Assembly (NCBI GenBank): GCA_016187175.1
Contig: JACPKG010000003.1
Coordinates: forward strand, 1 to 46,542
DNA length: 46,542 nt
Origin: Candidatus Saccharimonadota bacterium
Lineage (GTDB): Bacteria; Patescibacteriota; Saccharimonadia; Saccharimonadales; UBA10212
Direction of reading: 5' to 3'
The notes under the pieces were generated by a model. That model was not told where the DNA came from and did no database searches. It worked only from the letters and a program-made list of their open reading frames with translations. How positions within the stretch are numbered: position 1 is the first letter of the stretch; every line of letters begins with the position of its first letter. A program made the translations under genes and the position numbers. This document shows positions 1 to 30,725 of the stretch, in pieces.

Positions 1-1822
1 TTCGGTGCGACATTTTTGGTTTTGGCGCCCGAACATAAAATATTCGCCTCAGGCGAATTAAGTATTTCTAAAGAAGTCAAAGATTACATAGAACAGGCTG
101 AACGCAAATCGGAAATCGACCGTATGGAAACCGAGCGTGAGAAGACCGGTGTATTTACCGGTATTTACGCGATCAATCCGGCCAACAAAGAAAAAATTCC
201 CATTTGGGTAGCTGACTATGTTCTACTTGGCTACGGCACTGGCGCCATCATGGCCGTCCCGGCCCACGATGAGCGCGACTGGCAGTTTGCTAAAAAATTC
301 AAGTTGCCGATTGTCCATGTTTACGACCAGAAAGGCGCTGACCCCAAAAGCTGCTATCACGGCGAAGGCATAGTCAAAAACTCCGGACGCTACGATGGCA
401 TGACAACCAGCGATATGCGCGAAAAAATAGTCAAAGATCTGGCCAAAGCTGGCGTAGCTAAAGAAAAAATAAACTACAAAATTCGTGATTGGCTGATCAG
501 CCGGCAGCGTTACTGGGGCGCGCCGATTCCAATCATTCATTGTCCCAAAGATGGCACAGTGCCTGTGCCGGAAGAAAATTTACCAGTGGTTTTGCCAAAG
601 ATGAAAAGCTATGAGCCAAGTGGTGAGGGCCACGGCCCATTGGCTAATGTGCCGGAATTCGTCAATGTCAAATGTCCAAAATGTGGTGGTAAGGCTAAGC
701 GTGAAACAGACACCATGGATGGTTTTGCCTGTAGCAGTTGGTATTTCCTGCGGTTTGCCGACCCCCACAACAGCCAATATGCTTTTGACGAGCAAAAAAC
801 AAAATTCTGGCTGCCGGTTGATGATTATATTGGTGGTGCCGAACATGCCGTCATGCACCTGCTGTACGCCCGTTTTTGGACAAAAGTTATGTTTGACGAG
901 GGCTTGATCAGCTTTGACGAGCCTTTCACTACGCTGCACAACCAGGGCATGATTCTAGCTCCTGATGGGCGCAAAATGAGTAAAAGCTGGAACAATACCA
1001 TTGAGCCGGACAACTTAATCGAACAAGGCTATGGCGCAGATTCTATCCGTCTGTTGGAGCTCTTTATCGGCCCATGGGACCAAACTGCTAACTGGAGTGT
1101 TGAAGGATTGGGTGGCACTTTCCGTTTTCTACAGCGAGTTTGGACGTTGGTTCAAGAATACTCAGATGCAACAAGCAACAAGCAACAAGTAACAAGCTCT
1201 GGGCATAATGCCGAGCTGGAAACACAGATTATGCGGACGGTTCATAAAGCGATCAAGAAAGTCAGTAAAGACTTGAACGAACTTGGCTTTAACACAGCCA
1301 TTGCCGCCCTAATGGAATGTGTCAACCAGCTTTACAAAGTTAAAAACCAAAATGGAATGTGTCAACCAGCTTTACAAAGTTAAAAACCAAGGCCCTTCGA
1401 CCCATTCGATAAGTACTCAGGGTCGCCCTGAGTCTATCGAACGAGCGACTAGGCTCAGGGGGAGCAACTTTTCACTGGTTCAGGAGGCCTGGAGAGACGG
1501 GCTGATTGCTTTAACACAACTGCTGGCACCTTTCGCGCCACACATAGCTGAAGAAATTTGGGCCGAACTGGGACAAGCTGGTTCGGTACATATTAGCCAA
1601 TGGCCAGCTTGGAATGAAGAATTAGTCCAAGAAGACCTAATAACAATTGTTGTTCAGGTCAACGGTAAAGTCCGTGCGGAACTACTACTACCATCTGATA
1701 CAACTGAAAAAGAGGCTGTTGAAGCTGCCAAAAATGACGACAAAGTCGCAAAAAATATAGCCGGTAAAAAGATAAAAAAAGCAATCTACGTCCCCGGCCG
1801 GCTGGTTAGCCTGGTGGTTTAA
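1..1822 (+). CDS. leuS: Leucyl-tRNA synthetase, 5' partial; frame broken by a 40-bp tandem duplication at 1311-1390
   Basis: Motifs YGTGAIMAVPAHDERD, DWLISRQRYWG, KMSKS and C-terminal VQVNGK; ORFs 16-1383 and 1319-1822 join into one frame if one 40-bp copy is removed. Confidence 0.97.
1168..1195 (+). repeat. 7-bp tandem array inside leuS
   Basis: gcaacaa x3 + gtaacaa, encoding ATSNKQQVTS. Confidence 0.9.
1311..1390 (+). repeat. Perfect 40-bp tandem duplication
   Basis: aatggaatgtgtcaaccagctttacaaagttaaaaaccaa at 1311-1350 and 1351-1390. Confidence 0.98.
1393..1460 (+). repeat. Nested REP-like palindromic insertion, in-frame in leuS
   Basis: Outer cccttcg|actaggctcaggg interrupted by a 48-nt inner unit containing ttcgataagtactcaggg-tcg-ccctgagtctatcgaa. 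Confidence 0.8.
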
Positions 1823-2084
1823 GTTGGCTGCCAAAGGCCAGTTTTAAAACACAAACCCCAGTGGCCGCACCGACCGCTAAGCGTTTGACTTTTCTGCTCA
1901 ATCGAGATTCCTGGCGCCTTTTTAGAGATCTTGCCGCAGATTGCTCGAAAAGATCCTCTATTGTCCATTGTTCAACTAGATCTTTTACGGAGTAGTCCGG
2001 TAGGCCTGCAACTATAGCCGCAAATTCTCTGTTAATTTCTTCCGGGCCGTGCCAATCTTCTTCGGCGTCGCGAAAACTATGCAT
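1806..2084 (-). CDS. Hypothetical protein, 92 aa
   Basis: ATG ORF filling the gap after leuS; acidic N-terminus and hydrophobic C-terminus; no recognised family. Confidence 0.5.
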   Translation of the reverse strand: MHSFRDAEEDWHGPEEINREFAAIVAGLPDYSVKDLVEQWTIEDLFEQSAARSLKRRQESRLSRKVKRLAVGAATGVCVLKLAFGSQLKPPG

Positions 2085-2266
2085 ATATCACGATTTAATA
2101 GTTTAATATTCGTTCTGAATTCCCAATATCCATATGATAATGGGATATAATAACAAATAGTTTGCAATAGTAAATAAGGACTTCGCTTAGTAGTGCTGAC
2201 TTAATTACAGGGAAGTAGGTATGAGACAGTCGATCCATAAGATAGTAAAAAGTGTAGGCGGGTAAA

Positions 2267-2413
2267 ATGGGAAAGCCTAAGAAACGAACCAGTTCGCGTC
2301 GCAGCGGCAGGCGGCGTAGCCACCTAGTCACTAAACTGGCTAAGCGCGTGAACGCTAAAAGTCCTGTCAAGGTAAATCTCAAACAGTCAGCCGTCAAAAA
2401 GCCGCTAAAATAA
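2267..2413 (+). CDS. rpmF: 50S ribosomal protein bL32, 48 aa, zinc-free type (absent from ORF track)
   Basis: Translates MGKPKKRTSSRRSGRRRSHLVTKLAKRVNAKSPVKV...; PKKRTS..R...RRSH is the bL32 N-terminal signature. Confidence 0.9.
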   Translation: MGKPKKRTSSRRSGRRRSHLVTKLAKRVNAKSPVKVNLKQSAVKKPLK

Positions 2414-2469
2414 ATAAGAAAAAACCTGCCAAGGGTAGGGTATACTATTAGTAAGGACCAACTTAACAA

Positions 2470-2943
2470 ATGAGTGCCAATCGTCATCTAGGCCGGATAG
2501 TTGCTCTCCAAACCCTTTATGAGCAAGATTTTCGCCAAGAATGCCAGGACGAGGCGTTTAGGCTGAACAATGTTCTAAATCGCAACATTGACCGCTACCA
2601 AGAAACAATCGATGATAAAAAATTCATCAAGCAGCTGGTGAGCGGAGTAGACAGCCATAGGCAGAAAATTGACGATATTATCCAGCCGGTGGCGCCGGAA
2701 TGGCCTATCGAGCAAATCGCTCGGATAGACCGCGTGATTCTGCGGATGGGCGTATACGAGCTTATCTACGGTAGCGAGATACCGCCAAAGGTTGCCATCA
2801 ATGAAGCTGTCGAGCTGGCCAAGGCCTTCGGTGGGGACAACTCATCTAAATTTGTTAATGGTGTTTTGGGTACGGTTCTTAGAAATAAAGAACAAAAGAC
2901 AAAAAACAAAGAGCGAAAACCAAAAGCTATAAAGAAAAAATAA
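2470..2943 (+). CDS. nusB: Transcription antitermination factor NusB
   Basis: [38 protein letters not shown]. Confidence 0.97.
2884..2925 (+). repeat. Degenerate 7-bp array forming the NusB C-terminal tail
   Basis: aataaag aacaaaa gacaaaa aacaaag agcgaaa accaaaa. Confidence 0.65.
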
Positions 2944-2990
2944 GGATATAAATGTTCGTTGTTCACTGAAGCGACTCGAAGGGAGCGGTT

Positions 2991-3488
2991 TTGAAAAGGC
3001 CAAAGCCAATACAGAGTTTCCGCAGACTTATCAGACGGCCAGCCATTAACGAAGTGGTACGCGAACCAACGGCTGGCGGTATAATTTTTCGCCATGCCCC
3101 TAAGCAGCCCAAAGACATAGAAATTTTGCTGATCCAGGACAGTAAGAACCGTTGGACAATCCCTAAAGGGCATATAGAGGAGGGCGAAACGGCGGCTCAG
3201 GCAGCCGAGCGGGAAATTCGCGAGGAAACGGGGTTGACTCGGATGCAAGTTCTAGACTGGCTGGGTAAGATTAACTTCCGCTATCGCCGCGGTAGCAGCT
3301 TAGTATTGATGACGACTGAAATATATTTAGTCAGAGCTAACGGTAGGACCGGCGAGGTCAAGCCCGAAAAATGGATGACCAGTCTGGCCTGGCTACCCGC
3401 CAAGGACGCGCTTGATAAAATTGAATATGAAGACATAGGTAAGCTAATATTGCTAGGACTGAAGAAGATAAGAAAGCAGCAATTATGA
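2991..3488 (+). CDS. NUDIX hydrolase
   Basis: Nudix box GHIEEGETAAQAAEREIREETG. Confidence 0.93.
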   Translation: MKRPKPIQSFRRLIRRPAINEVVREPTAGGIIFRHAPKQPKDIEILLIQDSKNRWTIPKGHIEEGETAAQAAEREIREETGLTRMQVLDWLGKINFRYRRGSSLVLMTTEIYLVRANGRTGEVKPEKWMTSLAWLPAKDALDKIEYEDIGKLILLGLKKIRKQQL

Positions 3489-3547
3489 AACATGAAACAA
3501 GAAACATGAAACAAGAATTCGTATTTCGTGTTTCACAATTCGTAGTT
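3485..3547. repeat. Nine 7-bp units in register, purine-rich half followed by pyrimidine-rich half
   Basis: atgaaac atgaaac aagaaac atgaaac aagaatt cgtattt cgtgttt cacaatt cgtagtt, centred on GAATTC. Confidence 0.85.
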
Positions 3548-3567
3548 CAACGACCGGAGGTTATTTG

Positions 3568-4266
3568 ATGGACATGTCTAAATATCAAGCTTTGGCCGAT
3601 AAGCATTTTGGCGGATTTTCTAATTTAGAATTACTGATTACGGCTTTTACTCACCGTTCCTATCTGAACGAGCATAAAGCTACGGCCAAAGAGCACAACG
3701 AACGGCTAGAGTTTTTGGGTGACGCAGTGCTAGAGCTAGTTGTTACCGAGCATTTGTACAACAACTTTAAGGAACCAGAAGGGGTTTTGACTAACTGGCG
3801 CAGCGCTTTAGTACGGACCGAAAGTATCAGTGGGGCGGCTGAACGTGAAGAGTTTGAGCCGCTGCTTAGATTATCCCGTGGCGAGAAACGCGGATCCGAA
3901 CGCGCCCGTCAGCAAATACTGGCGAATTGTTATGAGGCTGTTGTGGGCGCCCTATACCTTGACAAAGGCTATAAAGCTGCCAAGGAGTTCATTAACCGTA
4001 CACTGCTGCCGGCCCTAGAAGAAATTCTGCAAAACGGTGCGTGGTTAGACCCCAAGTCTCAGCTTCAAGAAAGAGTTCAGAGTCGCGAGGGCTTCACGCC
4101 TGTATATAAGGTTATGCAGGAAGAAGGTCCGGACCATAATAAAATATTTATGGTTGGCGTTTATGTCAATGATGAGCTAAAAGGTAAGGGCGAAGGACCA
4201 AGTAAGCAAACAGCCCAAGTGACTGCCGCCACCGCTGCCCTGCGACAATACCTGAAAGAGGATTGA
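3568..4266 (+). CDS. rnc: Ribonuclease III
   Basis: NERLEFLGDAVL signature; dsRBD DPKSQLQE...GPDH; SD ggagg upstream. Confidence 0.98.
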   Translation: MDMSKYQALADKHFGGFSNLELLITAFTHRSYLNEHKATAKEHNERLEFLGDAVLELVVTEHLYNNFKEPEGVLTNWRSALVRTESISGAAEREEFEPLLRLSRGEKRGSERARQQILANCYEAVVGALYLDKGYKAAKEFINRTLLPALEEILQNGAWLDPKSQLQERVQSREGFTPVYKVMQEEGPDHNKIFMVGVYVNDELKGKGEGPSKQTAQVTAATAALRQYLKED

Positions 4267-4291
4267 CTTCAGGGGTGGTTATCTGTAAAAT
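4263..4291 (+). promoter_or_regulatory. Sigma70-type promoter of rpsP
   Basis: TTGACT-17 bp-TAAAAT, ATG 9 nt after the -10 box, no SD. Confidence 0.7.
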
Positions 4292-4300
4292 GGCCTAGAC

Positions 4301-4747
4301 ATGTTAACTATTCGCCTCCAGCGCCGCGGGCGCAGTGGTCATGCTCAGTTTAGACTGGTGGTTCAAGATAGCCGTTTTCATCCCACCAGCGGACGGGTGG
4401 TAGCCTACGTTGGCAGTTATGACCCGCACACCAAAGCCACAACACTTGACGGTGAAAAAATAAGCACATATCTGTCCAGCGGAGCTCAACCATCAGATAA
4501 GGTTGCCAAATTATTGCAAAAGGCAGGCATCAAACTGCCCAACTGGTTTAAAGCCGCGGCGCCAAGAACCGGCAAAGTCCGCAATCCTGAAAAGCGCCGC
4601 AGCACACGCTTGCCTTCCGAAGGAACTCCTACTGAGCCTGAAGCCCAAACAGCAAATGCTGAAACACCAACTGAAGCGCCGGCCGCAGAGGTACCCGAAA
4701 CTAAATCTGCCGAGGAGGAAAAACCGGCTGACCTCTTAAAAGAATGA
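4301..4747 (+). CDS. rpsP: 30S ribosomal protein S16 with acidic C-terminal extension
   Basis: IRLQRRG, VGSYDP, GAQPSDKV. Confidence 0.97.
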   Translation: MLTIRLQRRGRSGHAQFRLVVQDSRFHPTSGRVVAYVGSYDPHTKATTLDGEKISTYLSSGAQPSDKVAKLLQKAGIKLPNWFKAAAPRTGKVRNPEKRRSTRLPSEGTPTEPEAQTANAETPTEAPAAEVPETKSAEEEKPADLLKE

Positions 4748-4791
4748 TATAATAGACTAACAATTTAGTTTCAGAGAGAAGGAGAAAAGCT

Positions 4792-5358
4792 GTGGCGGTA
4801 AGTATAGACCAGCAATTCATAGAATATATCATTAAGTCCATAGTCGGTCATCCAGAGGACATCAAGATCGAGCGCCGGATTGACGAAAAAGGCGTTTTGT
4901 TAGAGCTATCAGTTAACCCCGAAGATCTTGGCCGGGTTATTGGCAAACGCGGCGCGACAGCACAGAGCATCCGTACACTTCTGCGGGCGCTGGGTACCAA
5001 GAACGACGCCCGTTACAACCTCAAAATCATAGATACAGGACCACCGCCAGAGAGCAGAGGACCCGCCTTCGCCGAGGCTTCCCCCTTCGCTGATGCTTCG
5101 GAGGACAAGTCGGTGGACGGGTCGGAGGGCAGGACAGAAGACAGAGGAAAAGTTCCAGCTGTGGCCACAGCTAGTGACGATGATGTAGTAGCAGATACCC
5201 CAAGTGACGATACAGCAGTGCCTGACGATTCGGCCAGAGCCGATGATGTAGATATGACTGAGGACGAAGAGTTGCCCAAGACACCCAAAGAAGATCATAG
5301 CGACGTAGTCAGCCGCACGCGCAAAGAATTAGCCGACCTCGACGACCTAGACGTCTAG
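4792..5358 (+). CDS. khpA: KH-domain RNA-binding protein (KhpA/YlqC family) with long acidic tail
   Basis: DLGRVIGKRGATAQSIR (GxxG KH loop); position after rpsP. Confidence 0.9.
   Translation: MAVSIDQQFIEYIIKSIVGHPEDIKIERRIDEKGVLLELSVNPEDLGRVIGKRGATAQSIRTLLRALGTKNDARYNLKIIDTGPPPESRGPAFAEASPFADASEDKSVDGSEGRTEDRGKVPAVATASDDDVVADTPSDDTAVPDDSARADDVDMTEDEELPKTPKEDHSDVVSRTRKELADLDDLDV
5049..5147 (+). repeat. Two nested 30-nt REP-like units inside a 7-bp array, in-frame in khpA
   Basis: Outer cccgccttcgccgaggct|tcggtggacggg (5062-5079 + 5110-5121) split by inner tcccccttcgctgatgcttcggaggacaag (5080-5109). Confidence 0.85.
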
Positions 5359-5374
5359 GAGGCTTCGCCTTCCA

Positions 5375-5442
5375 GAAGACAACCTACGGTTTTCTTCCGG
5401 CGCTCACTGTTGGAGTGAATCCAACTTCCGTCTGCGCCGGAA
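5375..5442 (+). repeat. Multi-hairpin intergenic element
   Basis: gaagacaacc-tac-ggttttcttc; ttccggcgc/gcgccggaa enclosing gttgga-gtgaa-tccaac; first hairpin recurs at 19099-19121 on the minus strand. Confidence 0.65.
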
Positions 5443-5524
5443 CCATTCGCTGCTAACTTTCCCTCAATCCAGCATCCTGTTTTTTCTCCGAAGAGGTAAA
5501 TAAAACTCTGATATTATCTAGGAG

Positions 5525-5608
5525 ATGATTTATCTAATTTTGGCAGTTGGCCTGGGGTTGGTTTTGGCAGGTCTTGCCGTCGTTATTTACGCTCGGGCAA
5601 CCGCTTAA
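5525..5608 (+). CDS. Putative 27-aa single-pass membrane microprotein (absent from ORF track)
   Basis: MIYLILAVGLGLVLAGLAVVIYARATA; stop 3 nt before the trmD ATG. Confidence 0.5.
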   Translation: MIYLILAVGLGLVLAGLAVVIYARATA

Positions 5609-5611
5609 TTT

Positions 5612-6286
5612 ATGAAGATTCAAGTTATTACGCTGTTTCCGGAGATGTTTGAGGGTGTCTTAAATACCAGTATGTTGCGGAAGGCACAAGATAAAAAACT
5701 GGTCGAGTACAAGCTAATCAACTTACGGAACTTTGGTATTGGACCACGTAAGCAGGTTGATGACACACCTTATGGCGGCGGCGATGGCATGGTGTTGCGT
5801 GTTGAACCGCTGCTAGCAGCGGTTCAACACGCAATGTCGTCCATTCGACAGGCTCAGGACAGGTCAGTCACTAATCGTCAGTCACTAGTCGTTTTGATGA
5901 CGCCGAGGGGAAAGAAGTTCACTCAGGCCAAGGCTAGAGAATTATCAAGAATTGATAATCTGATTTTAGTTTGCGGACGCTACGAGGGCTATGACGAACG
6001 CGTCACTAGTTTTATTGATGAGCAGATTTCAATCGGTGACTACGTGCTGACTGGCGGCGAATTGCCGGCTATGGTGGTAATTGATGCAGTCACCCGTTTG
6101 ATCCCCGGTGTACTGGGTGGTACCACCAGCGCCGTGCGGGAAAGTTTCGCTCAAGCAGGCGTCGTTGAATACCCGCAGTACACTCGTCCGGAAAAATTCC
6201 GTGGTCTGAAAGTTCCCAAAGTGCTACTGTCTGGTCACCATGCCGAAGTTGAAAAGTGGCGCACTGGTCAGCAGAGGAAAAAGTGA
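5612..6286 (+). CDS. trmD: tRNA (guanine-N1)-methyltransferase
   Basis: VDDTPYGGGDGMV, CGRYEG.DER, SIGDYVLTGGE, YPQYTRP. Confidence 0.98.
   Translation: MKIQVITLFPEMFEGVLNTSMLRKAQDKKLVEYKLINLRNFGIGPRKQVDDTPYGGGDGMVLRVEPLLAAVQHAMSSIRQAQDRSVTNRQSLVVLMTPRGKKFTQAKARELSRIDNLILVCGRYEGYDERVTSFIDEQISIGDYVLTGGELPAMVVIDAVTRLIPGVLGGTTSAVRESFAQAGVVEYPQYTRPEKFRGLKVPKVLLSGHHAEVEKWRTGQQRKK
5833..5891 (+). repeat. 24-nt REP-like unit inserted in a 7-bp array, in-frame in trmD
   Basis: tccattcgacaggctcaggacagg (5840-5863); removal restores aatgtcg tcagtca ctaatcg tcagtca ctagtcg. Confidence 0.85.
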
Positions 6287-6314
6287 TATCATAAAGCTTA
6301 TAACAGGAGGGCTT

Positions 6315-6803
6315 ATGACAAAGTTGCAAGATCAACTTAATAGGTGGATGACCGGTACGGACGAATTACCAGCCCTGCGCGATAAAGACTGGTATCTAAG
6401 CAATTTGTTAGGAGCCGTCTTCGTAGTTATGGCAATCCTGCAAATCATCAGCTTTAATGGTTTTAAAGAAGCGCTTAGGGGAATTGGCCTGACCTCTAGT
6501 CCGGCGGTTTGGGCGGTGTTACTTATCATAGTTGAGCTGTGGGCAATGCTTGGTTTCTTTAAGATACGCTTAAACCCTTTGGCCCGCCGGCTTAGCGGTC
6601 TCTTTGCCGTCTTGGTCAGCGGTTTCTGGTTTATTCAGACAATGAAGCTTGTCTCCGAAGGCGCCGCAGGCCAATTGCCCGGTAGCGGGTTTTTTGGTAA
6701 ATATCTTCAACAATCACCGGGCTGGTGGACGGTCGTTGAAGCCAGCTTGCTGCTATTTACGGTGGTTTATGTTTTAAGCCTGTCTGACTCGAAGAATAAA
6801 TAA
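6315..6803 (+). CDS. Membrane protein with about 4 TM helices (possibly DoxX/MauE-like)
   Basis: SD aggagg before ATG 6315; four hydrophobic segments; family call tentative. Confidence 0.7.
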
Positions 6804-6805
6804 CT

Positions 6806-7417
6806 ATGTTTAAGTTGCCGCCACTTGGTTACGATTTTGCTGCACTAGAACCCTACATTGATGCCAAGACAATGGAAATTCATCACGGCAAGCACCATGG
6901 AGCTTATGTCGAGAAACTAAATACCGCTCTGGAAAAGTATCCCAAGCTGCAAAATAAAAAAATCGAAGACTTGCTAATCAATATAAAAAACGTTCCCGAT
7001 GATATTAGCACAGCTGTCCAAAACAACGGCGGCGGCCACCATAACCATACACTGTTCTGGGAAAGTATGAAACCGGGAGGATCCCCGTACCATTCGGTGC
7101 AGGGCACAGCCCAAAACGTACCCGAAGCTATCACTACAACGTTCGGTAGCTTAGATAACTTCAAAGCCAAGATGACCGAAGCCGCCATCAACCGTTTTGG
7201 CTCCGGCTGGGCCTGGCTGGTCAAAAATAGTAACAATCTAGAGGTTTATTCCACGGCCAACCAGGACAGCCCGTTGATGGAAGGTAAAACACCAATTCTT
7301 GGGCTAGATGTCTGGGAACACGCCTACTATTTGAAATACCAAAACCGCCGCCCCGATTATGTCGAAGCTTGGTGGCAGGTTGTGAACTGGGACGTTGTTA
7401 GCGAGCGCTTAAGTTAG
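6806..7417 (+). CDS. sodA: Fe/Mn superoxide dismutase, Mn-type residues
   Basis: [33 protein letters not shown]. Confidence 0.96.
7083..7104 (+). repeat. Short hairpin in the SOD inter-domain linker
   Basis: ccccgtacc-attc-ggtgcaggg encoding SPYHSVQG. Confidence 0.5.
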
Positions 7418-7425
7418 TCTAGGTC

Positions 7426-7671
7426 TTACTTTAGACTCTTTTTTTCACGGACTTTTTTCATAGATTTATCGATGAGTTGATTTATTATTTTTTTAAATCT
7501 TTGTAAGTGGCGGTCTGCCCACTCGAACTCCAGCGATAGAATAAAAAGTCCACCGGCTGTAACAAGGACTCCGGGACCGGGCAAGGGAATTAAAATCAGG
7601 CCAATAATAAGTACGGGCAGACCCAGAAGCGCAATAATTATCTTACGCAGGGTTCTATAAGTCTTTCCCAT
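7426..7671 (-). CDS. PGPGW-like small membrane protein
   Basis: LIPLPGPG...LSLEFEWA motif. Confidence 0.85.
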   Translation of the reverse strand: MGKTYRTLRKIIIALLGLPVLIIGLILIPLPGPGVLVTAGGLFILSLEFEWADRHLQRFKKIINQLIDKSMKKVREKKSLK

Positions 7672-7672
7672 A

Positions 7673-8173: not shown

Positions 8174-8387
8174 TAGACTTTATTATAGTAGTTTTGATCG
8201 ATAAGATATAACCTGAGGAAGTTACTAGGGAATGACCTCATCGAAACATGACCTTTTAGCTCATCATAAAATTAATAACCATAGTTCATAACTCTAGATT
8301 TCACTTCATGGTCAACTGCCTCTCTCAATCTGCCAAGCAAACAGCGTCTTGGCCTGGCAGATTGTATATGGGAAAATAAATACGTAT

Positions 8388-8461
8388 TCCGGGATCGTCT
8401 AACGGTAGGACGCTAGACTCTGGATCTGGTAATCTTGGTTCGAGCCCAAGTCCCGGAGCCA
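8388..8461 (+). tRNA. tRNA-Gln, anticodon CTG
   Basis: Acceptor tccggga/tcccgga, anticodon arm ctaga-ctCTGga-tctgg, T loop ggttcgagcc, encoded CCA. Confidence 0.96.
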
Positions 8462-8496
8462 TTCGACTCATCCGCTAACACTTACTCGCTCATGGC
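8458..8496 (+). repeat. REP-like unit overlapping the tRNA 3' end
   Basis: gccattcgactc...actcgctcatggc; same TTCGAC...GCTCA core as the leuS and trmD units. Confidence 0.6.
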
Positions 8497-8537
8497 CTAC
8501 GGCCGCGAGGTGTAAAACCAAATTGAATTATTTATAG

Positions 8538-19555: not shown

Positions 19556-19692
19556 CGCGAAAGCCTAGCTTTCGCGATGAACAGTAAACAGTAAACAGTC
19601 AACAGTTTAGTCTCAGCTACTGTAACTCGTAACCTGCCCGTCCTCCACAGTTGCGGTGCAACCGCTACGGAGGGTGGATAACCCGTAACCTG
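19552..19692. repeat. Composite atpD-atpC spacer: perfect palindrome, two 7-bp arrays and a 42-nt REP-like insertion
   Basis: 13-bp arms 19552-19580; t(g/a/c)aacag x4 at 19578-19605; insertion 19637-19678 splits tgtaact cgtaacc tg|taacc cgtaacc. Confidence 0.88.
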
Positions 19693-22035: not shown

Positions 22036-22109
22036 GCGAAGTATGAAGTATGAAGTATGAAGTATAGAATTTTAGCTACTTTCTCCATTCTTCTTTCTCC
22101 TTTCTTCGC
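22036..22109. repeat. Facing 7-bp arrays in the atpA-atpG spacer
   Basis: gaagtat x4 (22038-22065), then tttctcc attcttc tttctcc tttcttc (22080-22107); closed by gcgaag/cttcgc. Confidence 0.88.
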
Positions 22110-22116
22110 AAAAATG

Positions 22117-23679: not shown

Positions 23680-24071
23680 GACAGTGTCTCCTTCAAGTCT
23701 GCTAATTTTCGAGCAACTGTGTGATCCCAGACGCAGTTTGAGGTTTCAACCCTAAGTCCGCCTATAACCGAGCGATCGACACTTTCTTGCAGCAGCACTG
23801 CCTTTGCGCCAGTAGTCTTTTTGACCTGGTCCTTAAGAGCTAGGCGTAGCTGCGGCGTCAGCATGGAAGAGCTAATAACCTGGGCGACGACCAGTTCGTG
23901 TCGAGCTTCCAGCTCAGCAGCGATGTCGCCCAGCAGAAATTCAATGTCGTCAACCTTATCGGTCTCGACCACTGCGGCCGCCAAATGCTTAGCGACGCTC
24001 CTAGCCGATTTACCTGCCAGTAATTGGACAGCGCTCCAGCGGGCCAAACTGCGCCGTGAAACTTTGTTCAT
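23676..24071 (-). CDS. atpH: ATP synthase delta, short form
   Basis: [11 protein letters not shown]...DHTV C-terminal motif; operon position. Confidence 0.88.
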
Positions 24072-24604
24072 CCCAGCCCCCTAATTGCTCGTTCAATTAA
24101 AGACCGGTCGTGCTGCGGACTTAATTTTTCGTCAATGATCTTTTTGGTGGCTTCGGCGACCAGCTCGGCCAGTTCGCCACGCAGTTGCTTATGTAATTTG
24201 GCATATTCCTGAGAGAGATTAGACTCAGTCTCCTTGATTATCAGGGCTGCCCGCTGCGAAGCCACCGCTTCGGCATCGGCGATAATACCGCCGGCGGCCC
24301 TTTTGGCTTCGGCTAAAGCCTCGTCTGCTGCCGCTCTGGCACGAGCTATAATTTCCTCGGCCCGTATCTCGGCTTTGGCCAGCGCCTCTTCGGTCTCTTT
24401 GGCGTGAGTCAGACTTTGTTCTAGCGTGCGGCGTCGGTCCTCAAGTGTTTTAAGCACCGGCGGTAAAACCCAGCGCCGGATTACCAGCAACACGATCACA
24501 AAAGTAATCAATTGAAAAACGAAGGCTTTTAAATTGATGTTAAAAGCTCCAAGACCGCTCGAAGAGCCGTCAGCTTCCGCAAAATACACTGGAATGTCCA
24601 TCAC
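24068..24604 (-). CDS. atpF: ATP synthase b
   Basis: N-terminal TM FQLITFVIVLL followed by an Ala/Glu coiled coil. Confidence 0.93.
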   Translation of the reverse strand: MMDIPVYFAEADGSSSGLGAFNINLKAFVFQLITFVIVLLVIRRWVLPPVLKTLEDRRRTLEQSLTHAKETEEALAKAEIRAEEIIARARAAADEALAEAKRAAGGIIADAEAVASQRAALIIKETESNLSQEYAKLHKQLRGELAELVAEATKKIIDEKLSPQHDRSLIERAIRGLG

Positions 24605-24619
24605 TAAAGTTGCTTTCTC

Positions 24620-24838
24620 CTATCCTGTGGTGAACAGTATCAGTAGTACGAAGGCCAAAACAGCGTCAACCAGACCGATCATAATGAAAGCGGTCGACAA
24701 GATCTTACCTTGAATTTCCGGGTTGCGGCCAACGGCGCCAACCACGGCGGCACCAATTAAGCCAATACCGATGGCCGGGCCTATGGCTCCCAGGCCGATA
24801 GTCAAACCTTTGATTAATGATGGATCGACGTTTTCCAT
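24620..24838 (-). CDS. atpE: ATP synthase c
   Basis: GxGxxGxxxGxG helix, RNPE loop, Asp in GLVDA. Confidence 0.96.
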   Translation of the reverse strand: MENVDPSLIKGLTIGLGAIGPAIGIGLIGAAVVGAVGRNPEIQGKILSTAFIMIGLVDAVLAFVLLILFTTG

Positions 24839-24896
24839 ACTCAGGGCTCCTTTTACTTACGTTCGTTCATTTAATAATAAATTACAACACAATCTC

Positions 24897-25694
24897 TTAA
24901 GTCGCTGGCTGAATCTCGGGCGCCTTACCTCCTCCTTCGTGTGACACGGCTGTCACCAAATAAGTGGCTGTTAACATCATAAACAAATAAGCCTGGACAA
25001 GCGAAAAGAAAATTTCTAAGAACATGATCGGCAGCGTTGCCGCCCAGGCGAAGTTACCCGATAAGGCTGAGATAGCGTGCAACAGAGCTTCACCACCATA
25101 AATCACTCCAAAAAGTCGCAGCGATAGGGTCACCAGGCGCAGAACTTCACCGAACAATTCGTTAATGCCAATCATAATATTCATCGGGTTGAGCAAGTTG
25201 CCTGAAAAATAGTGACGGAAGCGGCCCTTCAAACCAAGTTCACGCATGGCGTAAATATGGACAGTCGTCAGGCTCAAGACAGCCATGGCTAGCGTTGAGT
25301 TAAGGTCGGTCGTAAAAGCTCGTAAAAGCGAGGTCTGTTGGCCGTCAACAGCAAGCGATAAGGTACCAACGCCCGGTAGTAAACCGCTAAGATTGGCGGC
25401 TAAGATAAAAACAAACAGGCTCAGCAGTAAAGGGAAAAAGCGGGCAGCTTTCTTGCGATCCCCAAAGCTTTCGGTCATCAAGTTATAAATTAACTCGACG
25501 AAACCCTCAACATAAAAAGCCAGCCGGCTTTTAGGCCAAGCTTGGCTGGCACGGGCAGCGAATCCAAAAAGCATTAATACGAAGGTGGCCGTTACAATAC
25601 CAAACAGCATACTGTTGGTAAAGGGTAATGGGCCGATGCTAAATAGTTTTTCGGCCCCCAGCGGGGCGGCAGACTCGACGGCCAAGTAAGACAT
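24897..25694 (-). CDS. atpB: ATP synthase a
   Basis: TTDLN, LSLRLFG (essential Arg), LEIF..LVQAYLF; start ATG 25694 or GTG 25700. Confidence 0.95.
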   Translation of the reverse strand: MSYLAVESAAPLGAEKLFSIGPLPFTNSMLFGIVTATFVLMLFGFAARASQAWPKSRLAFYVEGFVELIYNLMTESFGDRKKAARFFPLLLSLFVFILAANLSGLLPGVGTLSLAVDGQQTSLLRAFTTDLNSTLAMAVLSLTTVHIYAMRELGLKGRFRHYFSGNLLNPMNIMIGINELFGEVLRLVTLSLRLFGVIYGGEALLHAISALSGNFAWAATLPIMFLEIFFSLVQAYLFMMLTATYLVTAVSHEGGGKAPEIQPAT

Positions 25695-25696
25695 TA

Positions 25697-25788
25697 GCAC
25701 CGCTGGCCCCCACCCATAGCGGTGCGAACGGCTGGAAAACTAAGTCCGGTCGTTGCTCGGTCCCAGAAAGTCATTCGCGGACAGTATA
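25697..25788 (-). promoter_or_regulatory. atp operon -10 box and structured 5' leader
   Basis: TATACT at 25788-25783; stems gcgaatg/cgttcgc, ctggga/ttccag and gcaccgct/agcggtgc. Confidence 0.45.
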
Positions 25789-25813
25789 ACAGCTCTACCC
25801 CTAAAGCTCAATA

Positions 25814-26215
25814 CTAAATCTCCAGTTTGATCTCTGCCTTTTCGCCAAGCAAATGACTAACCACTTCAAGCTGCGGCAACTCCAGCTTGATTTTTTCGGC
25901 GGCTAACGTCAACATCTTCGAATGGTTTTCAATCTCGTTTTCGACAGCACCAAAAACACCACATTCAATATGGTCCATAATGTGAATTGCATTAAAATGA
26001 TGCAGTTTGTATAAAAGTTGAATAGCCTCAATGACAGATGAATTATCAACTACGGCCTTCGAAGCGCCCGGCATTACCAGCAGATCATAGTAGTGGTCGA
26101 TTTTATCTATCATATGGCGATGGGCGTCCTGAAAACGAGGGTCCGAGCAGTGAATAATCAACACATCGCTCTTTTTCCTGTGTAGGTCTACTAGTCGGTA
26201 TTTAACCACTGTCAA
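25814..26215 (-). CDS. Beta-carbonic anhydrase-like protein
   Basis: CSDPR and HIECG supply the Cys/Asp/Arg and His-x2-Cys zinc motifs. Confidence 0.82.
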   Translation of the reverse strand: MTVVKYRLVDLHRKKSDVLIIHCSDPRFQDAHRHMIDKIDHYYDLLVMPGASKAVVDNSSVIEAIQLLYKLHHFNAIHIMDHIECGVFGAVENEIENHSKMLTLAAEKIKLELPQLEVVSHLLGEKAEIKLEI

Positions 26216-26315
26216 ATTCCTAATTCGATATTTGTCTAGCCGTCGGATAAACTACACTTTTTGGCTGGTTTTGTAAAGATGAACTTTGGTTGGAGTCCAC
26301 TATACTGTAAGTACC

Positions 26316-27674
26316 ATGGAGCCAGGTCAAAAATTGCCATCCACAATCTTGGTTATTTTCGGCATAACTGGCGATTTGTCACGTCGCTACTTGCTACCGG
26401 CGCTGGCGGAAATTTGTGCCAATACTGAAATCGGAAAAGATTTTAGAGTGCTGGGAGTATCTCGCCGCCAGGTTGATCTTAACAACGTGCTTGGCGCTAA
26501 AGAGAAGAATCTAAAAGCCTACAGCCAAATGTTGACAATGGATTTGGCTAATAGATCTGACTATCAAAAGCTAAAAGATGAAATTGGGGCACTCAGCCAA
26601 AAGTTCACTCAAGGACCTCAAGTCATTTTTTATCTTTCAGTACCCCCGGCCGCTGCCGATGGTATTGTCGGGCTGCTGGGTGAATCGGGCCTAAGCCAAC
26701 CGCCCGCGAAGCTTCTACTGGAAAAACCGTTTGGCTATGATCTCAGTTCAGCTCAGGAAATGATTGGGCGTATCGCCAAATATTTTTCGCAGGAGCAGGT
26801 TTACCGCATCGATCACTACTTGGCTAAGGAATCGGCTCAGAACATTGCTGTCTTTTTAGGTAGCAATGCCTTATTTCGTAACATTTGGAGTAATCAGTTT
26901 ATCGACCACATAGACATTGTCGCCGCCGAGGATATTGGTATCGGAGGCCGCAAGGAGTTTTGGGAGGCAACCGGCATGCTGCGGGATTTTGTCCAGAGTC
27001 ATTTGCTACAACTGGCAGCGCTAACGCTCATGGAACCATGCTCTCATATGTTTGATTTTGCCCAGCTGCCTGAGCGGCGACTGGCAGCTTTACAGAAAAT
27101 GAAAATTGCAGAGCTGAAAAGCGCTGTCCGCGGCCAATACCGTGGCTACCGTCAAGAGGTTGGCAATCCCAACTCCGCGGTTGATACCTTTGTGTCTCTA
27201 ACTTTGGATTCATCTGACTCTAGATGGCGTGGTGTTCCCATAAGACTCACAACCGGCAAGAAGCTTGATCAAAAGCTAACCAAGATTGACATTCACTTTA
27301 AAAAAAGCCAAGAAGCTGAAGCCAACCTGCTGACTCTTAGGCTTCACCCCCGAGAAGGTATCGAGCTGGATCTGTGGGTCAAAGAGCCGGGCTATAGGCA
27401 CAATTTGCAAAAACAACCGCTACGCTTTATTTATGAGCAACGATTCGGTCGCGTGCCGGAAGCCTATGAGCAAGTTCTAATCGATGCCATGCGCGCTAAA
27501 AAGAGCTTATTCGCCAGCAGTGAAGAAGTTTTGACCAGCTGGAAAATCTTGCAGCCGGTTCTCGATTACTGGAGTATGAGCGACAGCGATCTTAAGATCT
27601 ATCAACCCGGCAGCACAATCGAAGAAGTACTCCAGCAAAGAGCAGAGACCAAAGAGCCAAAAACAGACAACTAA
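26316..27674 (+). CDS. zwf: Glucose-6-phosphate 1-dehydrogenase
   Basis: FGITGDL, EKPFG, YRIDHYLAKE, RWRGVP...TGKK, EAYE. Confidence 0.96.
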   Translation: MEPGQKLPSTILVIFGITGDLSRRYLLPALAEICANTEIGKDFRVLGVSRRQVDLNNVLGAKEKNLKAYSQMLTMDLANRSDYQKLKDEIGALSQKFTQGPQVIFYLSVPPAAADGIVGLLGESGLSQPPAKLLLEKPFGYDLSSAQEMIGRIAKYFSQEQVYRIDHYLAKESAQNIAVFLGSNALFRNIWSNQFIDHIDIVAAEDIGIGGRKEFWEATGMLRDFVQSHLLQLAALTLMEPCSHMFDFAQLPERRLAALQKMKIAELKSAVRGQYRGYRQEVGNPNSAVDTFVSLTLDSSDSRWRGVPIRLTTGKKLDQKLTKIDIHFKKSQEAEANLLTLRLHPREGIELDLWVKEPGYRHNLQKQPLRFIYEQRFGRVPEAYEQVLIDAMRAKKSLFASSEEVLTSWKILQPVLDYWSMSDSDLKIYQPGSTIEEVLQQRAETKEPKTDN

Positions 27675-27731
27675 ATTACTTAACAAGTTAAGTAATTTGT
27701 CTATCGTTCAATGTTCATTGCTCATTGTTTA
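27634..27731. repeat. Facing 7-bp arrays flanking a palindrome
   Basis: agcaaag agcagag accaaag agccaaa aacagac ... ttgtcta tcgttca atgttca ttgctca ttgttta. Confidence 0.75.
27673..27698. promoter_or_regulatory. Perfect AT-rich palindrome, candidate repressor operator
   Basis: aaattacttaac-aa-gttaagtaattt, about 30 nt upstream of TATAAT (27730-27735) of the ABC operon. Confidence 0.6.
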
Positions 27732-27743
27732 TAATGTATGTCT

Positions 27744-28553
27744 ATGGTCAAACCGATCATTGAGGCTCGGGATGTTGTTAAGACATTCGGAACGATTCAA
27801 GCTGTGGATCATGTCAGTTTTGAAGTATACCCAGGCGAGATTTTTGCATTTTTGGGTCCCAACGGCGCCGGCAAAAGCACCACGATTAAAATGCTTACGA
27901 CAATGCTGCGGCCGACCAGCGGCAAATTGTTGCTCAATGGGCACGATGTAGCGAAAGACCAAGCCGCTGCCAGAAAATCTTTTGGCATCGTTTTCCAGGA
28001 CCCGGCACTTGAAGAAGAGCTGACGGCTTATGAAAATATGCTTTTTCATGCCGTGCTTTACGGCGTACCAAAAGGGCAACATACAACTCGTATTGAAGAA
28101 TTAATGAAACTGGTTGATCTATGGGAGCGCCGCGACAGCTTGGTGCGTACTTATTCCGGTGGGATGCGCCGGCGCCTGGAAATCGCCCGCGGGCTGCTGC
28201 ATCACCCGCAAATCCTATTCCTGGACGAACCGACGCTTGGCCTGGATACGCAAACGCGTAACGTGCTGTGGAATTACGTCAATAAACTCAACAAAGAAGA
28301 AGGGATGACCATCTTCTTTACCACCCATTATCTAGACGAAGCCGAGCAAGTAGCCGAACGTATTGCTATTATCGACCACGGCAAGATTGTCGCTGAAGGT
28401 ACCACCAAACAGCTCACCGCCAAAACAAAAACTAAATCGTTAGAAAAAGCCTACCTGAAATTAACTGGCGAAGGCATTCGTGACGAAATCAGCGAAGACT
28501 TTGATGGCTTAAATGTCCGTAGTGCGCTCAGAAACCAGCGGTTAAGGGGTTAA
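27744..28553 (+). CDS. ABC exporter ATP-binding subunit, DrrA-like
   Basis: GPNGAGKST, YSGGMRRR, LFLDEPT, TTHY; start 27744 or 27738. Confidence 0.96.
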   Translation: MVKPIIEARDVVKTFGTIQAVDHVSFEVYPGEIFAFLGPNGAGKSTTIKMLTTMLRPTSGKLLLNGHDVAKDQAAARKSFGIVFQDPALEEELTAYENMLFHAVLYGVPKGQHTTRIEELMKLVDLWERRDSLVRTYSGGMRRRLEIARGLLHHPQILFLDEPTLGLDTQTRNVLWNYVNKLNKEEGMTIFFTTHYLDEAEQVAERIAIIDHGKIVAEGTTKQLTAKTKTKSLEKAYLKLTGEGIRDEISEDFDGLNVRSALRNQRLRG

Positions 28554-28554
28554 A

Positions 28555-29301
28555 ATGGACGAGATATACATTCTGTGGTGGCGGCAGATGAAACGGTATT
28601 TACGCACCCGTTCCAGGATTTTCGGTAGCATTGGCCAGCCTATTTTATTCCTGCTGGCACTTGGCTATGGCCTAGGAGCGGTTTTTGAACGGGCCGGGCA
28701 GGGCGACTATCTGCAGTTTTTGGTGCCAGGTATTATTTTGCAGACTCTACTATTTTCCGGCGTTTTTTGGGGCATTCAGATTCTTTTCGATAAGCGCTTC
28801 GGGTTTTTGAAAGAAATGCTGGTCGCACCCGTCCCAAGGGTGAAAGTCTTGCTGGGCAACGCTTTGGGCGGGACAACAATCTCTATAATCCAGGCTGTTG
28901 TTGTTTTTATAGTGGCCGCCGCTTTTGGTTTTCGGCCGGAAAATTGGTCAATGTTGCCAGTAGCCTTTTTAATAATTGTCGTATTAAGCCTGACGCTTGC
29001 CAGTTTCGGTGCCGGGCTGGCTAGCATGGTTGATGATTTTCAGGGCTTTCAAGCCATAAATAATTTTTTGATTTTTCCGCTATTTTTCCTTTCCAGTGCG
29101 CTTTATCCGCTGTCGAATGTACCGGATGTGCTGAGAATTTTAGCTTCTATAAATCCGCTCAGCTACGCGGTTGACGCCCTACGCTACACCATGATCCATC
29201 AAACCCACTTTGGTTTAGGGCTGGACTTGGCGGTCATCGGATCGGCGCTGGTTGTCAGCGTACTTTTCGCTGTCAACCGCTTCAACCGTATCCAAATCTA
29301 A
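28555..29301 (+). CDS. ABC-2 type permease
   Basis: Six TM segments, FLVPG, GFLKEMLVAP, NPLSYAVDALR. Confidence 0.94.
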   Translation: MDEIYILWWRQMKRYLRTRSRIFGSIGQPILFLLALGYGLGAVFERAGQGDYLQFLVPGIILQTLLFSGVFWGIQILFDKRFGFLKEMLVAPVPRVKVLLGNALGGTTISIIQAVVVFIVAAAFGFRPENWSMLPVAFLIIVVLSLTLASFGAGLASMVDDFQGFQAINNFLIFPLFFLSSALYPLSNVPDVLRILASINPLSYAVDALRYTMIHQTHFGLGLDLAVIGSALVVSVLFAVNRFNRIQI

Positions 29302-29334
29302 CCCCTGTACGCTATTTAGTATGGAGCAGCTGTT

Positions 29335-29392
29335 GCCCTCCGTTGTTGGAAGCTATGGAGGGCTATCCTCCGTAGCCTTTGGCGTAGGAGGA
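29335..29392. repeat. Inverted pair of REP-like hairpins (BIME-like)
   Basis: gccctccg...gctatggagggc followed by tcctccgtagc...ggagga; near copy at 30672-30725. Confidence 0.88.
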
Positions 29393-29434
29393 TGGCGGAG
29401 AAAAAAAGAGGTTTGAGGAGTTTATACTGTAAGC

Positions 29435-30630
29435 ATGAATAACAAACCTCTCGCAGAAAGGATGCGGCCGCAAAGGTTGGAGGAGGTTGTTGGTCAGGCC
29501 CATGTTCTGGGCGAAGGTAAGTTATTGCATGAACTTGTCCGTGCCGGTAAGCCCTTCAGCCTGATTCTCTGGGGGCCGCCGGGTAGTGGCAAACCACTCT
29601 TGCGCGCCTAATCGCAACCGAGTTAAAGGCCGATCTCGTAGAAATCTCGGCAGTCGCTGCCGGTAAAGCCGACGTTACCAAAGTTGTTGAACGGGCCAGG
29701 GTCAACGCCCAGGGTGATACTACTCGCGGACCGCAGGCCACCATACTTTTCGTTGATGAAATTCATCGTTTTAACAAAGCCCAACAAGACGCCTTTTTGC
29801 CGCATGTAGAGTCAGGACTGGTCACCCTGATCGGCGCGACAACTGAAAATCCTAGTTTTGAAGTTATCAATCCGCTACTTTCACGCAGTCGAGTAATCGT
29901 GCTGGAGCCGCTATCAAAAACAGATGTCATCACTATTGTAAAAAGAGCTGCCAAAAGAGAGAAACTGACCTCAAAACGACTGCCGAAAGAGAGCATCAGT
30001 CTGATAGCGGAATTGTCCGGTGGCGATGCCCGAATTGCTTTAAACACTCTAGAAATGGCTCAGCAGCTGACAGAAGGTAAAATCACGACTACAGTTGTGG
30101 AAACTGCTGCTCAGCAACGTATTGCGGGGTACGACAAGCTCGGCGATAACCACTACAATATCATTAGCGCCTTCATAAAGAGTCTGCGCGGCGGATCACC
30201 CACAGCGGCGCTTTATTACATGGCGCGTATGCTTCAGGCCGGAGAAGATCCGAAGTTCATTGCCCGGCGGATGGTAGTCTTTGCCAGTGAAGATATTGGC
30301 ATGGCCGCACCGGCTGCGCTGAACCTAGCCGCTTCCACTTTCTTAGCTGTCGAGCGCATCGGTCTGCCGGAATGTCAATTTAATCTATTCCACTGCGCAA
30401 CGGTGTTGGCGCGGGCGCCGAAATCTCGTGAAGTAACCAATGCCATGAAGAAGGCTTTAATTACTGCCAAGCAGTATCCCGATCTGCCAGTGCCCTTGCA
30501 TCTTCGCAACGCACCGACAGAGTTGATGAAAGAGCTTGGATACGGCAAGGACTACCAATGGCAAGCCGGCTTTAAACATGGTAAGGGATTTTTGCCCCCG
30601 GGGCTTGAAAATACCGACTTTTTTGACTAA
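29435..30630 (+). CDS. rarA: Replication-associated recombination protein A, 1-nt frameshift at 29591-29593
   Basis: PLAERMRP, LWGPPGSGK|TTLA, FVDEIHRFNKAQQD, GATTENP, ISAFIKS, ASEDIG. Confidence 0.95.
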
Positions 30631-30671
30631 AGTAGCAACTGTTAATAACCTGACAATATCAAGAGCGCAGC

Positions 30672-30725
30672 GCCCTCCGTCGTCAAGACTATGGAGGGTC
30701 CTCCGAAGCTTTATGCGAAGGAGGA
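30672..30725. repeat. Inverted REP-like pair inside riboswitch P2
   Basis: gccctccg...actatggagggt + cctccgaagc...ggagga. Confidence 0.85.

Follow-up and report, generated by a model that had tools for sequence, protein, structure and literature searches.

Short repeat units in the window fall into at least two families

We analyzed a stretch of 46,542 nucleotides (the window) from a Candidatus Saccharimonadota bacterium (GenBank assembly GCA_016187175.1, contig JACPKG010000003.1, positions 1 to 46,542), in which short units, most of them hairpins, lie inside leuS, khpA, trmD, and the metK riboswitch, after a tRNA gene, in the atpD-atpC spacer, and next to mgsA. In the metagenome-type assembly it comes from (hereafter G000; 663,662 bases in 22 contigs, 47% G+C, 93% completeness), the window makes up contig C17; genomes of relatives measure 0.5–1.0 Mb, and the public runs containing the stretch are groundwater metagenomes. 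A sequence-only reading had proposed that seven stretches at these sites are one new system of frame-preserving mobile elements. All seven are present, with coordinates that are exact or off by a few bases. Instead of a single family, sequence comparison gives at least two, A and B, together with an unrelated hairpin in helix P3 of the riboswitch. Judged from the sequence comparisons below, the units are real insertions that occur above chance, and they are probably miniature non-autonomous insertion modules of the kind represented by repetitive extragenic palindromic sequences (REPs), small dispersed repeats (SDRs), and Rickettsia palindromic elements (RPEs).

The core of family A is CCATTCGACARGCTCAGG, its layout is CC-N-TTCGAC-ARG-CTCAGG, and it comes either as a 24-nt singlet or as an inverted doublet of ~70 nt. 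When up to four mismatches are allowed, its consensus matches nine times in G000 and once in the reversed sequence of the genome, which served as the control for motif counts. Four further, long copies in G000 are built alike: a split singlet (CCTTCGAC ... CGAC-N-AGGCTCAGG) surrounds an inverted doublet (CCATTCGA..CTCAGGG-TCG-CCCTGAG..TCGAA); the doublet is a repeated unit present in all four. More widely, 14 of the 93 family A matches in genomes have an inverted partner at most 130 nt away, as do 10 of the 89 in viral contigs. The typical hairpin of family B is CCTCCGWAGC-N4-5-GCGAAGGAGG, also written CCTCCGWAGC-N4-5-GCGWAGGAGG, and the B cores counted in G000 measure 21–36 nt, mostly 24–25 nt. 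The looser pattern CCTCC-N6-32-GGAGG occurs 14 times in G000 (6 inside the window) compared with 3 times in the control. Overall, the units are 20–73 nt long, with a G+C content of 58–69% that exceeds the 47% of the genome.

The two families have a tail in common, GG-RCARG. On the other strand it reads CYTGY and is followed by an imperfect palindrome, which bears out the tetranucleotide-plus-palindrome form recognized in the sequence-only reading. Three of the eight short A units end in GG[AG]C[AG][AG]G, as do 5 of the 14 B units (8 of 22 locally); the background rate is 0.7% per AGG. The tail also ends 34 of 83 B-type matches, among the matches listed from metagenome contigs; for these we used only the tail frequency and the inner sequence, which is non-random, leaving aside their total count, which is comparable to the estimated chance number. 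The proposed common end YCC...GGACRRG holds for a subset of units. Across the genome, the heptamer GGACRRG by itself shows no enrichment, with 256 matches on both strands of G000 vs. ~320 by a uniform-base estimate.

The claim that the units are hairpins stood for five of the seven. When single-stranded DNA folding was compared with shuffles, z scores were −2.95 for the leuS unit, −2.0 for the tRNA trailer, −2.05 for the atpD-atpC unit (19634–19681), −4.97 for the B pair at 29335–29393 (none of 200 shuffles folds as well), and −4.01 for the B pair in the riboswitch (30672–30726); the P3 insert of the riboswitch scored −4.89. The 24-mer in trmD (−0.24) and the khpA block (+1.17), however, fold no better than shuffles. 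By the criterion of 20- to 40-nt hairpins, B units and the A doublet thus range from −2.0 to −5.0, with the trmD singlet and the khpA block near or above shuffles. The flanks of the A core pair with each other (at least five contiguous pairs) in 15.1% of genome cases vs. 4.0% for shuffled partners, and in 12.4% vs. 3.3% in viral contigs. At Rfam gathering thresholds, a tRNA is the sole match in the window and no family covers the units. For full elements from across the bacteria, the best Rfam model was WsnRNA46, at 40.9 bits vs. a threshold of 65.3 and by structure-only alignment, the remainder being miRNA hairpin models.

Units lie in frame in housekeeping genes at sites that are empty in relatives

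At least five A sites and approximately three to six B sites of G000 fall within long open frames; about half of the clear copies are genic, and all five clearly coding A copies are in the sense orientation. As the sequence-only reading had it, the units sit in frame in variable loops of housekeeping proteins: the frames of LeuRS, TrmD, KhpA, PNPase, MurC, and UvrC stay open throughout. The orthologous empty sites it called for were found for leuS, trmD, pnp, murC, uvrC, the atpD-atpC spacer, and the metK riboswitch.

The leuS unit (1391–1462, + strand) is one of the four long A forms. Its 72 nt, an inverted doublet inside a split A singlet, add 24 codons to LeuRS, and this 24-residue insert is seen in G000 only (0 of 19 relatives). 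The congener G003 has a different 21-nt hairpin in leuS, one codon off the G000 insertion site. LeuRS-bearing open frames in relatives span 812–1143 residues, so other large lineage-specific insertions are likely. Abutting the start of the unit exactly is an exact 40-bp tandem duplication (1311–1390, + strand; 2.0 copies at 100% match by Tandem Repeats Finder [TRF]), the sole exact duplication with a period of at least 30 in the G000 assembly. It frameshifts the single-copy leuS and splits it into open reading frames 1–1383 and 1352–1822; either a true slippage product or a polymorphic site joined in assembly could account for it. Logan contigs from four public runs of one study cover the units. 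They break at unit edges, and depth over the leuS insert is about half that on either side, a weak hint of excision or of an empty allele; the pieces listed include no junction that leaves out 40 or 72 bases, though no piece spans 898–1592.

The trmD unit (5840–5863, + strand) is a short A form of 24 nt, translated as SIRQAQDR. It lies in a loop after the helix ending near residue 74, which is 10 residues longer in G000 and its congener G002 than in 13 of 19 relatives. In G002 this position also holds the A unit, there within an AAAGTCG array and read in another frame (PFDKLRV rather than IRQAQD), and in two other lineages the loop holds unrelated heptamer arrays. A 14-nt (2 × 7) tandem array (5863–5892, + strand; TRF) adjoins the unit in the same loop of G000. 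In the AlphaFold model of TrmD, which has a mean predicted local distance difference test (pLDDT) score of 73.6, the insert is placed between a helix (64–82) and a strand (91–102), and block 81–90 has a pLDDT of 65, as against 89 and 88 for the neighboring blocks. In khpA, a degenerate B unit enclosing a second B unit (about 5062–5134, + strand) lies in the disordered linker of KhpA and interrupts an AGAAGAC-type array. Relatives have plain heptamer arrays at this site, and joining the flanks of the G000 unit gives a period-7 score of 17/21.

Outside the window, units of these families lengthen the products of three further genes. PNPase of G000 has 23 additional residues that none of 28 informative relatives carry, MurC has ~19 extra residues at a site that is empty in 25 of 27 informative relatives, and UvrC is 19 residues longer than in all four congeners. 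At the murC site of the G000 A unit, G002 (L217) and G013 (L239), which belong to different genera, have similar inserts of ~57 residues, the size of RPEs. Permissive sites thus take different units according to lineage, as seen for leuS in G003, for murC in G002 and G013, and for riboswitch helix P2 in G011.

Units also occupy a tRNA trailer, operon spacers, and a riboswitch

The tRNA-Gln (CTG) gene (8388–8461, + strand) is followed by a trailer (8462–8512, + strand) in which an A-like TTCGAC comes right after CCA, followed by a 21-nt split and then GCTCATGG and a hairpin. Such A-like trailers, placed straight after CCA, are found in 4 of the 34 tRNAs of G000, that of tRNA-Trp on C21 being a near twin, and the same layout recurs in other assemblies of the candidate phyla radiation (CPR). 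In the atpD-atpC spacer, a 42-nt B-type hairpin (19637–19678, + strand) is located inside a GGTTAC/GTAACCT heptamer array. These coordinates are the unique best cut restoring the period-7 array of the flanks, and the congener G003, which is without the unit, has one GGTTAC copy instead of four. Two adjacent B hairpins (29337–29361 and 29367–29391, + strand) separate an ABC-2 permease gene from mgsA. The mgsA/rarA gene itself (~29436–29800) appears to have a 1-base frameshift at Walker A, where one frame stops after GPPGSGK and the sequence goes on as TTLARLIA in another, which could reflect a pseudogene or a homopolymer error.

The last site is the S-adenosylmethionine (SAM-I) riboswitch leader of metK (30655–30862, + strand), a gene whose identity is confirmed by Pfam. 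The leader scores 29.3 bits with RF00162, below the gathering score of 44.4, because it carries two insertions; RF00162 is found upstream of metK at eight of nine loci of relatives (E ≤ 0.01), with four of nine above the gathering score. The 5′ strand AATATCAAGAGCGCAGC (30655–30671) agrees with relatives at 16 of 17 bases. It is followed by two B hairpins (30673–30724, + strand; hairpins at 30674–30697 and 30700–30724), an insert of ~52 nt (±1) flanked by GCAGC and AGGGA, after which the aptamer resumes at AAGGGA. This puts the B pair in the 5′ strand of P2 and agrees with the proposed riboswitch insertion, the placement being read by eye; MAFFT instead aligned the 5′ strand of relatives to the B unit. 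At the same P2 point, the metK leader of G011 (L277) has a 20-nt insert. The second insertion is an expanded P3 stem (30755–30813, + strand) made of the other hairpin type (CCCACCCAAATT...), for which cmscan reports 44 extra P3-loop bases. Two similar hairpins exist elsewhere in G000, and P3 loops, short in relatives, are enlarged in G000 and G021 (L279).

Some units interrupt heptamer arrays

Tandem arrays in G000 most often have a period of 7 (118 of 357 arrays called by TRF, with 87 distinct heptamers). Heptamer arrays are also found in frame in the TrmD and KhpA loops of several relatives, three copies making 21 nt. We used a census of 26 A/B units in G000 to compare unit positions with random sites. 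Joining the flanks restores a period-7 array at 3 of the 26 units and at none of 3,000 random sites, and a looser "any" criterion gives a binomial p of 2.4e-4. TRF-called arrays lie within 15 nt of 2 of the 26 units, compared with a random mean of 0.43 (p = 0.07), which is insignificant alone. Since 3/26 contrasts with 0/3,000, the link to arrays is real, for a minority of units. Further heptamer arrays of the window are located at 3485–3517, 19580–19606, 22038–22105, 42032–42061, and 44960–44990.

One array moves together with its unit. The uvrC gene of G000 and the trmD gene of G002 share, letter for letter, a 37-nt module consisting of an array plus an A unit (2 of 49 genomes of the family), although orthologous proteins of these two genomes are only ~75–80% identical. 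The presence of an identical module at non-orthologous genes of two congeneric species points to recent movement, and this comparison of sequences is what argues best for it.

Frame preservation and nesting

The proposal that all units have lengths divisible by three is correct for those of 24, 42, and 72 nt, but B cores vary from 21 to 36 nt and the riboswitch insert measures ~52 nt. Moreover, the A unit is read in three frames, giving STSSG-type peptides in LeuRS, PNPase, and MurC, IRQAQ in TrmD and UvrC, and FDKLRV in TrmD of G002, which shows that the DNA and not the peptide is conserved, and five of its six frames are free of stops. From these sequence features, frame preservation seems better explained by selection on the copies that fall in coding regions than by an intrinsic rule of length. 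A comparison of lengths modulo 3 between coding and intergenic copies rests on the one intergenic unit with sharp borders (42 nt), too few for a claim. That units insert into each other is borne out by the nested forms, i.e., the long A copies and the khpA B block.

RAYT-like genes have REP families of their own

G000 has five genes for Y1 (HUH) transposases of family PF01797, one of them in the window (39936–40637, + strand; PF01797 at 37–38 bits vs. a cut-off of 23). Its product has HFHLL and SRYIHLNP motifs and resembles the REP-associated tyrosine transposases (RAYTs), with an NCBIfam REP_Tyr_transpos score of 47.8 bits vs. a cut-off of 80; the Y1 genes of G000 match this model below the cut-off. 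Named close homologues come from Candidatus Saccharibacteria and Saccharimonadales. The gene is flanked by palindromes, namely a cognate REP of the ACAAGGATWATCCTTGT type upstream (39939–39960) and a cognate REP downstream (40645–40666), with no strand assigned. In general, the Y1 genes are each bordered by near-perfect palindromes of their own, which form four REP families with 16, 4, 9, and 10 matches in G000 and none in the control. REPtron-like loci are C1:20074-20840, C13:39242-39978, C18:17702-18416, and 39939–40666 of the window, and a palindrome TGTGATAGGTYWRACCTATCACA is found at ~10 loci of G000.

We also looked for other enzymes. No TnpB-type protein, reverse transcriptase, or tyrosine recombinase (PF00589, the family that includes XerC/D) was matched in the 93%-complete G000. 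A link to GIY-YIG nucleases was considered and dropped: by a strict regular expression, a small GIY-YIG open reading frame is near the A unit at 2 of 80 loci, and in G000 at none of four. Of the small GIY-YIG genes of G000, the one at C3:4150-4800 immediately precedes an RNase P RNA-like sequence, and the one at C4:1100-1750 immediately precedes tRNA-Met. Other repeats of the genome include intergenic, terminator-like hairpins of the types GAGGTCCGACCTT...AAGGTCGGACCTC (32 arm matches) and AGGGTCGTACCCT (12 matches), e.g., at C1:49191-49222 and C3:598-625. A recurrent stretch, which on the other strand reads ..GGGTGAGGTTCTAACGGGATG, is present in ~13–22 copies (e.g., C8:9395, C8:33390, and C11:12708) and looks like a shared ribosome-binding leader ending at the start codon.

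Family A is widespread beyond the genome

Among 31 related genomes, family A is found in 14, with three control matches in total, and strict B in four, with none in the control; all four are A-positive. G005, with seven A matches and three B loci, has the most units after G000. Beyond these relatives, an A 20-mer matches at least 120 stretches of species genomes vs. ~4 by a uniform-base chance estimate, as well as 85 viral stretches. Among the matches listed, the hosts include Cyanobacteria, Chloroflexi, Nitrospirota, Planctomycetes, Bacteroidetes, Acidobacteria, Eremiobacterota, Alpha-, Beta-, and Deltaproteobacteria, and several CPR groups; two are isolates. The cyanobacterial matches include assemblies of Nostoc, Leptolyngbyaceae, and Coleofasciculus. 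With the B-type matches in metagenome contigs, both families are seen well beyond the lineage of G000, while their presence among its close relatives is patchy. Separately, the 5′ end of the 16S rRNA of G000 (C19:10836-10880, ..TTTGATCCTGGCTCAGGATGAACGC..) is similar to those A units that end in GCTCAGGGTGAACGG, a resemblance that may be due to chance (rough p ~0.02).

Discussion

The A and B units share traits with several known systems. RPEs, reportedly described by Ogata et al. in 2000, are said to be palindromic elements of ~100–150 bp inserted in frame in housekeeping genes of the reduced Rickettsia genome. A and B are likewise palindromic, lie in frame in housekeeping genes of a reduced genome, and would add surface peptides, but they are only 21–73 nt long and are not from Rickettsia; the murC inserts of G002 and G013 alone come near RPE size. 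The SDRs of heterocyst-forming cyanobacteria, which Elhai et al. are said to have reported in 2008, would be dispersed, nested elements of 21–27 nt with precise short insertion sites. Genomes hosting SDRs are also rich in heptamer tandem repeats, which in cyanobacteria are known as short tandemly repeated repetitive (STRR) sequences. Compared by description only, A and B agree with SDRs in their lengths (21, 24, and 24–25 nt), nesting, and precise cuts; they differ in that their host is an ultra-small non-cyanobacterium and that they cross phyla. Similarly, G000 is like STRR-bearing genomes in its many short period-7 arrays but belongs to another phylum and has arrays in frame in protein loops as well. 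IS200/IS605 elements provide a would-be mechanism, a hairpin beside a short guide or tag being inserted without target duplication, but no transposase is linked to A or B and no TnpB was found in G000. Unlike miniature inverted-repeat transposable elements, the units show no target duplication when filled and empty sites are compared at leuS or the atp spacer; only nested A forms repeat CGAC.

With REPs and REPINs, A and B have in common short imperfect palindromes with a tag at one end, singlet and inverted-doublet forms, a patchy distribution, occasional in-frame genic copies, and RAYT genes in the same genome, the latter being RAYT-like in G000. However, the A/B tag is RCARG/CYTGY, with no GTAG or CGTC tag seen; A and B are low in copy number and about half genic, whereas REPs are high-copy and mostly extragenic; A and B are absent from the flanks of the RAYT-like genes; and A and B are nearly the same across phyla, in contrast to REP families, which are held to be specific to a species or genus. 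Bertels and Rainey 2011 (PMC3116915) give an account of REPINs and RAYTs. For REPs, the text of Di Nocera et al. 2013 (PMC3733652) reports in-frame copies inside known genes and related species with different REPs at about the same gene site, so the term "new system" used in the sequence-only reading is too strong. As for SDRs, passages of papers that cite them (PMC5861425, PMC4390886, and PMC3116915) report them from Nostocaceae only.

What is novel relative to REPs, SDRs, and RPEs is the tag, the very small size of the units, their identity across phyla, and their insertion in essential genes and a riboswitch. In the article texts searched, four 15-mers of A and six longer encoded peptides had no occurrence; the supplement of PMC3733652 lists intragenic REPs with their peptides, which may bear on this novelty. 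The peptide FDKLR occurs in unrelated contexts, 10-mer strings of B gave only unrelated papers among the matches listed, and no paper on RAYTs or REPINs in Patescibacteria was among those listed.

If A and B are insertion modules as we propose, a short tag plus an imperfect palindrome would constitute the module, copies of which would be pasted into the chromosome with no obvious target duplication. They would survive only at tolerant sites: surface loops or linkers of proteins, tRNA trailers, operon spacers, peripheral riboswitch helices, and heptamer arrays. Within genes, the survivors would be stop-free copies that add multiples of three, which would give the family its frame-preserving appearance. 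Movement would then be enzymatic, most likely through an enzyme acting on single-stranded DNA hairpins at the tag, and the units would be selfish rather than useful.

Several points weigh against this reading. Copies are few, as the 0.66 Mb of G000 contain ~13 sites of A and ~14 of B, and A copies have diverged at 2–4 of 19 positions, whereas the true REPs of the same genome are near-identical. The "active" family of the sequence-only reading is thus backed by signs of movement such as the 37-nt module, but copies this few and diverged differ from those of a REPIN family in an active burst. Some loose-B matches (C17:18515, C21:8843, and C22:35991) resemble chance matches. The preference for heptamer arrays is significant over random sites but concerns a minority of units, whether judged by joined flanks or by adjacency. 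All four long A copies share one layout, so nesting may come down to the spread of a single composite element instead of four independent events. Logan contigs gave neither an excision product nor an empty allele within the population, with no piece spanning 898–1592. On the side of the enzyme, mobilization by the genome's own RAYTs, which had been anticipated, fails to find support at the five Y1 genes, which have REP families of their own in their flanks and neither A nor B. No Y1 transposase was matched in G005 (93% completeness) despite its A and B units, and none of the four small GIY-YIG genes of G000 has A or B within the surrounding 650 bases.

A narrower account, which we regard as possible but doubtful, is that A and B are substrates of the RAYT-like Y1 HUH transposases of G000, cut at the CYTGY tag without target duplication. 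Five PF01797 genes are present in a 0.66-Mb genome. The tags of their cognate REPs, CTTAC and CTTGC, resemble the A/B tags CTTGC, CCTGT, and CTTGT, and the apex of the A doublet (CAGGG..CCCTG) is a 5-bp stem common to two cognate REP families. Across the 31 genomes, A and Y1 occur together in 10, A alone in 4, Y1 alone in 3, and neither in 14 (Fisher one-sided p = 0.0035, uncorrected for relatedness), but this may mirror genomes that tolerate repeats, and related genomes are non-independent. Besides the lack of adjacency in G000 and of a Y1 match in G005, a Y1 homologue falls inside the 8-kb stretch at just one of the 80 pan-bacterial A loci, ~6 kb from the unit. We consider it unlikely that no dedicated transposition is involved, the units having spread by short-patch illegitimate recombination or gene conversion, with other copies or DNA taken up from the environment as the source, or through template switches at hairpins in the course of replication. 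The same slippage-prone replication would then have produced the 40-bp duplication and the heptamer arrays. The near letter-identity of units in distant phyla and viral contigs, the clean leuS and atp sites, the exact duplication adjoining the leuS hairpin, the dominance of period-7 arrays, and the joint movement of an array with its unit all fit such an origin. Neither a conserved tag at the unit end nor the repeated use of one exact position within A singlets, however, is expected from untargeted recombination.

It is less probable still that the units act in cis and are kept by selection instead of spreading as selfish DNA, for instance as RNA or DNA hairpins to which a conserved host factor binds in processing, termination, or stabilization. 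Consistent with a function are the above-shuffle pairing of A-core flanks in genomes and viral contigs, the A-like trailers right after CCA here and in other CPR genomes, and the uniform sense orientation of clearly coding A copies. Against it, the orthologous sites of close relatives work without units, the positions occupied (protein loops, a riboswitch helix, and spacers) have no common function, and the units match no Rfam family. Artefacts such as assembly chimeras, contamination, or chance low-complexity matches are very improbable as a general explanation. The assembly is of metagenome type in 22 contigs, the window has two frame breaks (the leuS duplication and the mgsA shift), and public contigs end at unit edges; but frames stay open through units in six housekeeping genes, units recur in independent assemblies that include isolates, motif counts exceed the reversed-sequence controls, and contigs of the four public runs cover the units.

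Returning to insertion modules, a broader and speculative extension, to which we give limited credence, is that A and B together are one cross-phylum superfamily of tagged hairpins of ~20–25 nt, which would rank with the smallest mobile DNA known, with RCARG/CYTGY as the site where a widespread single-stranded DNA enzyme would cut and join. Heptamer arrays would be preferred landing pads or by-products, and the superfamily would be a source of protein loops and RNA helices in ultra-small genomes.

The units have practical consequences, as they break short-read assemblies at their edges, and the peptides they encode (PFDKLR.., STSSG.., and SFAKASEG..) recur in many predicted proteins. Their near-identity across phyla and viral contigs raises the question of which enzyme or host factor holds the sequence constant. 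If they are mobile, a streamlined genome of 0.66 Mb would tolerate selfish DNA in leuS, pnp, murC, trmD, uvrC, and a riboswitch, and the sites would form a natural map of the loops and helices that accept 7–24 residues or 20–50 bases.

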